Origin: Escherichia phage WPEC3
Reading direction: 5' to 3' (one strand)
Sequence record: PV611058
DNA length: 64,000 bases
The translations under genes and the position numbers were made by a program. The notes beneath the pieces are model-generated. The model was given only the letters and a program-made list of their open reading frames with translations. It made no database searches and was not told the DNA's origin. Below are positions 46,517-47,206 of the stretch, in pieces (position 1 is the stretch's first letter; each line of letters starts with the position of its first letter).

Positions 46517-47206
46517 TCACTTCGTTCTCTCGTAACTCAAGAAGTCACTACGTTTACTTCGTAAACTAGTTCCTTCTGAAAATGATAATGTACTTTAAAA
46601 GCTTGACGGGATTTGTTGAGGACTATTTCATCCCCCCGCAGGGGAATGAAGGTAATAAAAAAGAGACAATTAAGTCTCTCTTGACGATGATGGCATCGGA
46701 TATTATCGAATTGCGAATTTCTCAAATTTTGGACGGATCTTTCCTGTACCAAAATTTAGAGAGCGAAAGCGGGTTGCTCGGTTTCTCTCTATCGCAGTCA
46801 TATGCAACGGTCGCTGGTCTTTTCATCAACAGCACTCAGTACTAAACTCTATTCGATCAAAGTAGTACCTGTTCTCAAATTTTGGACGCAACTTTCTTGT
46901 AAAATCGCGTCCACCATCCTTGAACTCCCTTAGCAAATTCGTAAGGTGCGAACCTTATACATCTATCTAGGAACTCTCTGTGTGCTTATTGGAGTTCTTT
47001 ATACAGCCGTGTCGCCGTGATTCGTGGTCTTATCTCGTGTTTGTTTGATTGCCAGTACTCTAACAGGTTTCTTTTGCTGTTCGCTACAACGGTAAAGCTC
47101 ATCTATCCTTTACATTTTCAAGAGAAGTAGGTTCTCATTATCCATTTTTCAATGTCCGTTGTCATTTTACAATATACATTATATCACTAGGATGTGTTAT
47201 GTCCCG

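Follow-up and report, generated by a model that had tools for sequence, protein, structure and literature searches.

The stretch of DNA analyzed here, referred to below as the window, comprises 64,000 nucleotides of Escherichia phage WPEC3 (sequence record PV611058). The phage belongs to Asteriusvirus, the 121Q/PBECO4-like jumbo coliphages of about 350 kb in the Rak2-like group, and the closest matches to the window are Escherichia phages Turkey3, EC.P1 and Ecwhy_1 (99.5-99.6% identity). Between the minus-strand open reading frames (ORFs) 46088-46516 and 47207-47620 lies a gap, 46517-47206, with ORFs of only 31-87 aa on either strand. An earlier note, made from the sequence alone, had described this gap as an ORF-poor, GC-rich island with a direct repeat and hairpins, the only long gap among tightly packed genes, and had proposed a structured RNA, an origin or packaging-related site, or a gene or intron remnant. 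The gap is occupied throughout by a single element and is neither coding nor decaying. We consider the element, with a probability of roughly 85%, to be an autonomous gene on the minus strand for a structured non-coding RNA (ncRNA) of a new family.

The descriptive part of the earlier note held well. Within 44.5-49.5 kb, the span checked, no other long gap exists, and the GC fraction is 0.395-0.435 across 46500-47099 versus 0.255-0.36 in the flanks. The direct repeat is real and longer than described, with 27 of 30 nt identical between 46719-46748 and 46872-46901; the 16-mer that is repeated exactly begins at 46720 and at 46873, within a few bases of the positions given before. Two homologous hairpin modules have their 3' half in common (consensus ACAnGAAAGwUsCGUCCAAAAUUUGAGAA), and this half is the repeat. 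All three named hairpins were found and assigned: gagacaattaagtctctc (46663-46680) is the terminator, ccccgcagggg (46634-46644) is the tail hairpin, and ggacgc/gcgtcc (46884-46889 and 46907-46912) is the stem of module 1. The parts of the element are as follows, in the order of transcription:

47178..47206, minus strand: promoter, with a -35-like CGGGACA (47206-47200), a 13-nt spacer and an extended -10 TGATATAAT (47186-47178)
46656..47173, minus strand: RNA body of about 515 nt, from the predicted start to the end of the terminator U-run, with at least 13 helices and a pseudoknot
46657..46679, minus strand: intrinsic terminator, AGAGAC-UUAAUU-GUCUCU followed by UUUUU
46602..46656, minus strand: conserved tail, a 10-bp hairpin UUCAUUCCCC-UGC-GGGGGGAUGAA (46627-46650) and then a C-rich single strand UAGUCCUCAACAAAUCCCGUCAAG
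46517..46601, minus strand: post-tail block, consisting of GAACUAGU, the hairpin UUUACGAAGUAAA and UUCUUGAGUUACGAGAGAAC, and ending at the start codon of the next gene (46516)

Alignment with related phage genomes, which the earlier note had recommended, revealed the same non-coding element in place and no intact protein gene at this position. The gap alone is 95.4-95.8% identical to PBECO4-type phages, and the gap together with 500 bp of flanking genes about 90%. In comparison with SD-2_S15, Turkey5 and A4, respectively, identity is 96.9, 87.0 and 83.1% for the RNA body, 96.7, 100 and 93.4% for the tail, and 84-90, 61-85 and 65-89% for the flanking genes. BLASTN still aligns the core (46604-47078), at 65-71% identity, with members of other phage genera, including Mimasvirus (GAP32, CBB, XbC2), Eneladusvirus (fHe-Yen9-04, Serratia BF) and further Munch, 7t3, SE_PL, Kaldavass, Hallingskeid and Klebsiella phages, and each such genome has at this place an unannotated gap of 0.7-0.9 kb or a gap filled with non-conserved ORFs of 24-62 aa. 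Judged by these alignments, the RNA is more conserved than its neighbouring genes, across phage genera.

Substitutions sorted by position modulo 3 numbered 65/73/45 in the element versus 61/29/138 in the upstream gene, and 141/104/203 in the other neighbouring gene. Indels between lineages have lengths of 1, 2, 4 and many other values and break every candidate ORF, and neither codon periodicity nor a conserved frame was found in the element from substitution phases and indels. Small-ORF readings, such as those from the ATG in CATATGAC or from GGGGGGATGAAA in the tail, were rejected on account of indels or early stops in other members. Chains of annotated 'hypothetical proteins' of 24-68 aa run across the RNA gene in deposited records, for example L002 (WPEC5) 3038-3603, L003 (SD-2_S15) 2040-2606, L006 (fHe-Yen9-04) 1580-1732 and L010 (Hallingskeid) 1515-2019; they differ by genome and are broken by indels, and these annotations are almost certainly spurious calls.

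These results bear directly on the suggestion that the gap holds a decayed gene, an intron or homing-endonuclease relic, or small proteins as in some annotations. An HNH endonuclease gene does lie 0.8 kb upstream, and some depositors have annotated ORFs of 24-62 aa in the gap. However, an element under stronger purifying selection than its neighbours, free of codon periodicity and equipped with its own promoter and terminator does not look like a remnant. Both flanking genes are intact and belong to separate PHROG families, the genes at the other locations of the element are unrelated, and the group I and group II intron models gave no match. We regard this explanation as hardly tenable.

Alignments of 15 sequences (A1) and of 35 non-redundant homologues (A2, MAFFT alone) were used for structure prediction with RNAalifold, which yielded 85 pairs, 29 with changes on both sides, from the former and 69 pairs, 38 with changes on both sides, from the latter. 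The model submitted to testing comprised 62 pairs in 13 helices after two speculative long-range helices had been removed. RNAalifold had also predicted that the 5' end pairs with the tail (A2 columns 37-39 and 663-665) and CGUC-1 with GAUG-2; neither pairing showed covariation, and both were excluded from the model. Canonical pairing was observed in 98.0% of cells, compared with 81.8 +/- 0.5% after shuffling of partners and 38-46% after sliding by 1-3 columns; two-sided changes occurred at 38 of the 62 pairs (25.6 +/- 1.9 shuffled, 7-14 slid), and the covariation score was 0.450 (0.145 shuffled, 0.04-0.07 slid). Not one of 500 shuffles matched the observed value in any measure, and 11 of the 13 helices covary, providing the compensatory changes that are looked for in a ncRNA. 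The helices and modules are listed below from 5' to 3'; those of the 5' domain have 2-6 pairs with two-sided changes each.

47120-47125/47106-47110, minus strand: P2, in the 5' domain (46971..47125)
47094-47098/47083-47087, minus strand: P3, in the 5' domain
47076-47080/47003-47007, minus strand: P4, in the 5' domain, enclosing P5
47063-47066/47015-47018, minus strand: P5, in the 5' domain, inside P4
46992-46997/46971-46976, minus strand: P6, in the 5' domain, with all 6 of 6 pairs covarying
46804..46934, minus strand: P8, a predicted long-range pairing of GCUAAGGG (46927-46934) with CCGUUGC (46804-46810), both blocks invariant, enclosing P10 and P11
46876..46921, minus strand: hairpin module 1, with the GGACGC...GCGUCC stem and copy 1 of the direct repeat
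46858-46863/46845-46851, minus strand: P10, inside P8, 3 pairs with two-sided changes
46705..46857, minus strand: pseudoknot of 7 bp, in which the loop AUCGAAU (46851-46857) pairs with AUUCGAU (46705-46711)
46830-46834/46812-46816, minus strand: P11, inside P8, 4 pairs with two-sided changes
46792-46796/46712-46716, minus strand: P12, in a three-way junction (46712..46796), 3 pairs with two-sided changes
46785-46789/46765-46769, minus strand: P13, in the three-way junction, with an invariant 15-nt loop AAACCGAGCAACCCG and 1 pair with two-sided changes
46759-46762/46720-46723, minus strand: P14, in the three-way junction, 4 pairs with two-sided changes, bearing module 2
46724-46758, minus strand: hairpin module 2, on P14, with copy 2 of the direct repeat
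46680..46701, minus strand: small hairpin GAUG...CGUC plus AAG (AUCCGAUGCCAUCAUCGUCAAG), with pairs G-C, A-U, U/C-G and G-C and a one-sided U/C change

The pseudoknot, which joins a hairpin loop to a distant strand, was spotted by an all-against-all scan of alignment columns. Its five variants are all complementary (TCGAAT/ATTCGA, TTGTAT/ATACAA, TCATAT/ATATGA and TCGCAT/ATGCGA, with a closing pair A-U, G-C or U-A), and it is 99.6% paired with a score of 0.475 versus 0.165 shuffled and at most 0.11 slid. The predicted P8 is 99.5% paired with invariant sequence. The minus strand folds at -154.4 kcal/mol (z = -4.05, none of 100 shuffles as good) and the plus strand has z = -2.05. The RNA was assigned to the minus strand because of its promoter and terminator and because the conserved G-U pairs would be A-C mismatches on the other strand; the fold z-scores agree with this assignment. 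Long invariant stretches fall in loops and junctions, namely the P13 loop, GACCGUUGCA and GCUAAGGGAG, as would be expected of an RNA with tertiary contacts or with a binding or catalytic surface.

The two hairpin modules vary between lineages. With the copies lettered as in phage 121Q (see below), module 1 is present in Asteriusvirus copies A and C, in BF_1 and in prophage copies, shortened in the EJP2/SE_PL type, and absent from Mimasvirus copies and from 121Q copy B. Both modules occur in Asteriusvirus copy A, the second alone in Mimasvirus and the first alone in the BF_1 type. From this distribution, module 1 behaves as a peripheral insertion; in large ribozymes, too, the same peripheral hairpin is known to insert at alternative places.

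The promoter abuts the stop codon of the upstream gene. A promoter scan of the gap gave GGGACA-16-TATAAT with TG (10 of 12 matches), and TGrrACr-N13-TGnTATAAT, preceded by an A/T-rich stretch, is found in 35 of 35 family members at a constant distance to the RNA. In phage CBB, a second, 'divergent RpoD-like' promoter class with the -35 sequence TGAAACG is enriched before DNA-synthesis genes (PMC5259590), and by its motif the promoter of the RNA is of this same class. The extended -10 should suit the host sigma-70 RNA polymerase and would place the transcription start at about 47173-47170 (near 47171). Most transcripts would then stop at the terminator (about 515 nt), and some would read through into the tail (about 570 nt). 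The terminator hairpin also appears in the single-sequence fold; its stem drifts by lineage (AGAGAC, GUACAC, GAUCC) with pairing and U-run kept and 4 of 4 tested pairs covarying, and a drifting stem with retained pairing is the mark of a working intrinsic terminator. Promoter and terminator are thus on the structure-bearing strand, as expected of an independent ncRNA gene, and together with the 38 pairs with two-sided changes, the covarying pseudoknot and the lack of a coding signature they bear out the structured-RNA candidate of the earlier note.

Further promoters of this class (TGGGACA/GGGACA-N13-TGnTATAAT) are present on the minus strand of the window at 36588-36560, 17586-17544, 41488-41446 and 43808-43766, and two tandem canonical TTGACA-17-TGnTATAAT promoters lie on the same strand at 20738-20696 and 20646-20604. 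The promoter at 43808-43766 shares the first transcribed bases of the RNA (GTTTATTGTA vs GTATATTGTA); it was rejected as the promoter of a second RNA gene, lying in or at the start of an ordinary ORF (43475-43954).

Beyond the terminator, the tail hairpin and the following C-rich strand, which reads CCUCAACAAAUCCCGUCA, form the most conserved part of the element, and the tail is nearly invariant across the 35 members. The GAyG...CGUCAr motif of the small hairpin recurs in the tail, and the last bases of both change in parallel between lineages. Transcription of the tail would be by read-through; in 121Q copy C the terminator hairpin is missing and the tail is retained. The tail was discarded as an independent element, since its motif retrieved only full elements (21 of 21 genuine hits have the body) and two GC-rich chance matches. 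The following 85 nt or so align with a block of about 110 nt common to jumbo-phage copies in differing genomic slots, comprising GAATTGAG, a hairpin, CGAAAATTCTTTGACA, a covarying CNNNC-GAA-GNNNG hairpin and GCAAATCA. In the window this block is 98.6% identical to 121Q and SD-2_S15, and the adjacent gene 84%. It is retained even in a slot whose downstream gene is convergent, and prophage and island copies have two other hairpins in its position.

Conservation past the terminator is one ground for the main rival explanation, a cis-acting replication element in which the transcript is a folded pre-primer of the ColE1 RNA II or T4 oriF/oriG R-loop type; an RNA-DNA hybrid would form and synthesis would start in the conserved DNA past the terminator, and the dispersed copies would be multiple origins. 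ColE1 RNA II has about the length of this RNA, the promoter class is the one found in CBB before DNA-synthesis genes, and the DNA past the terminator, the most conserved of all, contains a G6/C6 run. Nevertheless, an intrinsic terminator stands between the RNA and the supposed origin, in the window only 85 nt, not unusually A/T-rich, lie between the tail and the start codon that follows, and the invariant loops and pseudoknot over 450 nt look like a presented surface rather than a primer. No inflection of the cumulative GC skew is seen at this place, which is weak evidence with all genes here on one strand. We rate this explanation as quite unlikely, and the origin or packaging-site option of the earlier note, taken for the conserved DNA past the terminator, is a weaker reading than a structured RNA.

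Copies of the element were searched for by exact-pattern scans with the invariant blocks, and each hit was then checked by profile HMM and covariance model. Phage 121Q was found to have at least three diverged paralogues, all of full length:

247.4-248.1 kb of 121Q: copy A, the orthologue of the window copy
326.6 kb of 121Q: copy B, antisense to both of its neighbours, the endonuclease VII and baseplate-hub genes
192.8 kb of 121Q: copy C

Two or three copies are also present in Serratia BF, CBB, GAP32 and several metagenomic jumbo contigs, and copy B of 121Q is 99.8-100% identical to that of PBECO4-type phages. The window itself gave a single covariance-model hit of 185.8 bits with a runner-up of 15 bits; a second copy inside it was rejected, as BLAST, nhmmer and the unfiltered covariance model each find one only. 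The 'four places per genome' seen by BLAST are made up of full paralogues, at least three and all of them located outside the window, and of short matches resembling a promoter or terminator. The presence of 3-4 dispersed copies per jumbo genome is a further point in favour of a replication element.

Clustering of neighbouring ORFs showed that the paralogues occupy a few conserved slots, and no universal protein neighbour was found when the ORFs up to 2.5 kb away from each copy were taken together. The most widespread slot, between the baseplate-hub and endonuclease VII genes (17-18 loci), has convergent downstream genes, and the downstream genes of different slots are unrelated. In one slot of Mimasvirus- and Eneladusvirus-type phages, the RNA is followed after 40-1040 nt by a gene for an ADP-ribosylglycohydrolase (PF03747, with E ~1e-68 for both of those tested; L009, L015, L036, L062 and ten others); this gene is absent from the slot of the window. 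The RNA locus of 'Xanthomonas' phage XbC2 (L015), the sole carrier with a stated host outside Enterobacterales, is approximately the same as those of the Mimasvirus phages Kaldavass (Erwinia, L009) and CBB (Pectobacterium, L005).

The slots also speak to a cis-regulatory leader, that is, a riboswitch or attenuator whose sensing domain sets terminator read-through into the downstream gene. A structured domain, a terminator and a same-strand gene follow one another in the slot of the window and in the ADP-ribosylglycohydrolase slot, and the post-tail block extends to the start codon. However, such a leader would have nothing to regulate where the downstream genes are convergent, and it would have unrelated targets elsewhere. 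The terminator stem varies freely and the invariant upstream sequences show no matching anti-terminator change, and riboswitch and T-box models gave no match. A leader is therefore very unlikely. In the most widespread slot, moreover, the RNA is antisense to its neighbours and so is not their leader.

The RNA also has carriers other than jumbo phages. Citrobacter amalonaticus P55 and four metagenomic contigs have it immediately after a large serine integrase gene, and it is followed there by a 165-aa ORF, for which no informative family was found, and a CI/Cro-type immunity switch; the integrase and switch around the RNA identify the location as the end of a temperate prophage of Enterobacteriaceae. 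Two different integrases and two different host insertion sites are represented. In addition, the RNA is present in 2 of 5426 complete E. coli genomes, on an island of some 10 kb next to ffs, the gene for SRP RNA (L108, E. coli LR-29-1, NZ_AP027515.1, 4997-15341); the island has a broken tyrosine integrase, the PADLOC candidate defence system PDC-M45 and a gap of 1.4 kb left unannotated in RefSeq. The content of the island is an IS3-split tyrosine integrase, the RNA, three unknown ORFs, PDC-M45 (DuOB, DUF488, mSLOG-DUF4326) and a resolvase, and about 700 bp past the RNA (9583-10297) are likewise unannotated. Prophage and island copies occur singly and keep the promoter box, body, terminator and tail. 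No plasmid copies were found. A replication element needing no element-encoded protein would explain carriage by unrelated mobile elements, whereas an origin between int and cI would be unexpected in a temperate phage.

Two side observations concern the temperate carriers. One RNA-carrying prophage (L097, 1343-2272, plus strand) encodes a 309-aa reverse transcriptase (RVT_1, of retron/DRT size) about 3 kb from the RNA and beyond the immunity region, which is not present in the other prophage loci available. A relative of an RNA-carrying temperate phage (L111, 4736-5884, minus strand) encodes a phi29-type Gp16 packaging ATPase (PF05894); phi29-like packaging employs pRNA. The L111 fragment has no copy of the RNA, and jumbo phages have other packaging enzymes.

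The Rfam scan suggested in the earlier note recognised no family. With the 4227 models of Rfam 15, including introns (group I among them), RNase P, tmRNA, 6S, SRP, riboswitches, T-box, GOLLD, ROOL, OLE, HEARO and raiA, the whole window gave no hits at the gathering threshold, the gap gave chance-level matches only at E up to 10 (E = 3-9, 13-18 bits versus thresholds of 37-55), and no match was obtained for the paralogues or for the prophage and island copies at E up to 1. ARAGORN found no tRNA or tmRNA genes in the window, and the full-text literature, searched also for the invariant sequences themselves, yielded no description. The family is undescribed as far as these searches reach. Resemblances by eye to hammerhead (UGAUGAG...CGAAA), T-box and RNase P RNAs were dismissed as coincidence, having no model support and requiring pairings in conflict with the covarying helices; short likenesses to RNase P conserved regions (AGAGAGnAAAC, UAAGGG) occur in the wrong order.

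Among known systems, the large 'ornate' ncRNAs GOLLD and ROOL, often found in phages and prophages (PMC12286853), are similar in being stand-alone, phage- or prophage-borne ncRNA genes of at least 0.5 kb that form pseudoknots and many covarying helices and have no fixed protein partner. In contrast to them, the present RNA matches neither Rfam model, has no adjacent tRNA genes, occurs in Enterobacterales rather than in Firmicutes or rumen and lake bacteria, is present as several diverged paralogues in one genome and is followed, past its terminator, by a conserved tail. ColE1 RNA II and T4 oriF/oriG share a folded transcript of about 0.5 kb, a strong promoter, conserved DNA downstream and independence of element-specific proteins, and T4 is also multi-origin, with middle-type promoters at oriF/oriG; they differ in lacking a terminator before the conserved DNA and the pseudoknot with invariant loops, and no unit like the antisense RNA I was seen here. 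RNase P RNA and group I introns resemble it in size, invariant core, long-range pairings with a pseudoknot and lineage-specific peripheral hairpin modules at alternative positions, yet no covariance model matched at E up to 10, and this RNA, with a promoter and terminator of its own, does not interrupt a gene. The long ncRNAs ncRNA002 and ncRNA004 of PA5oct, a distantly related jumbo phage, were found by RNA-seq, the former making up 1-5% of phage reads (PMC7318152). Their loci, 450-620 nt long, likewise contain no ORF, and PA5oct falls in the wider Rak2-related group. Homology to them was rejected (best profile-HMM E = 0.1; no covariance-model hit at E up to 0.1).

The following genes near the RNA were assigned from the annotation of relatives and PHROGs:

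48942-49316, minus strand: Rz-like spanin
48017-48628, minus strand: the HNH endonuclease mentioned above
45617-46057, minus strand: Dps-like 'starvation-inducible DNA-binding protein', 0.5 kb downstream of the RNA

As to function, we tentatively favour a trans-acting, host-directed mechanism, at somewhat less than even odds overall and close to even if the RNA gene is taken as given. It is preferred because no element-encoded protein is present in all contexts and the hosts are in or near Enterobacterales, because the RNA is antisense to its neighbours in the most widespread slot, and because it travels as a promoter-to-terminator cargo in three unrelated kinds of mobile element, near immunity or defence genes. 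The folded RNA would bind or remodel a conserved host component, with the invariant loops and junctions AAACCGAGCAACCCG, GACCGUUGCA and GCUAAGGGAG as the active or contact surface and the repeated hairpin modules as peripheral stabilisers, and it would be carried as an accessory that helps in taking over the host, in counter-defence or in conflict between mobile elements.

Several points weigh against this proposal. It was reached by elimination. No RNA-seq for Rak2-like enterobacterial phages was found in the literature and the PA5oct ncRNAs are unrelated, so that the transcript is a predicted one. P8 and the tail hairpin are invariant and hence without covariation support. The element is most strongly conserved past its terminator, a pattern poorly explained by a terminated RNA that acts purely in trans, and the ADP-ribosylglycohydrolase gene downstream of the RNA in one jumbo-phage slot (14 loci) may be a lineage-specific protein partner.

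A wider and more doubtful proposal, less probable than trans action itself, makes the family a new type of large pseudoknotted RNA that serves in the conflicts of mobile elements with enterobacterial hosts, with the following roles taken together. In jumbo phages, 3-4 specialised paralogues would be expressed and would bind or inactivate a defence sensor or a conserved machine of the host; alternatively, the paralogues might self-assemble as GOLLD and ROOL do. The prophage or defence-island copy, with the same promoter box, could be a decoy or a trigger switched on by jumbo-phage infection, and the ultra-conserved tail could represent a second, read-through-dependent functional state of the RNA. 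The probability left over from the models named here goes to functions that we have not thought of.

Large, highly structured ncRNAs are rare, and new biology has come with each class found to date. In all deposited genomes inspected, the present RNA gene either lacks annotation or is wrongly annotated as tiny ORFs, and annotation pipelines should cease to call ORFs at these loci. Its carriers are phages of the best-studied bacteria, including coliphages under development for therapy, and the RNA can be tested in E. coli with cultured phages (121Q, PBECO4, phAPEC6, Sharanji and others) and a structural model that provides targets for compensatory mutations. Because it is constrained above the surrounding proteins, present in several copies and shared with prophages and a defence-type island, the RNA is probably important for infection or for competition between mobile elements.

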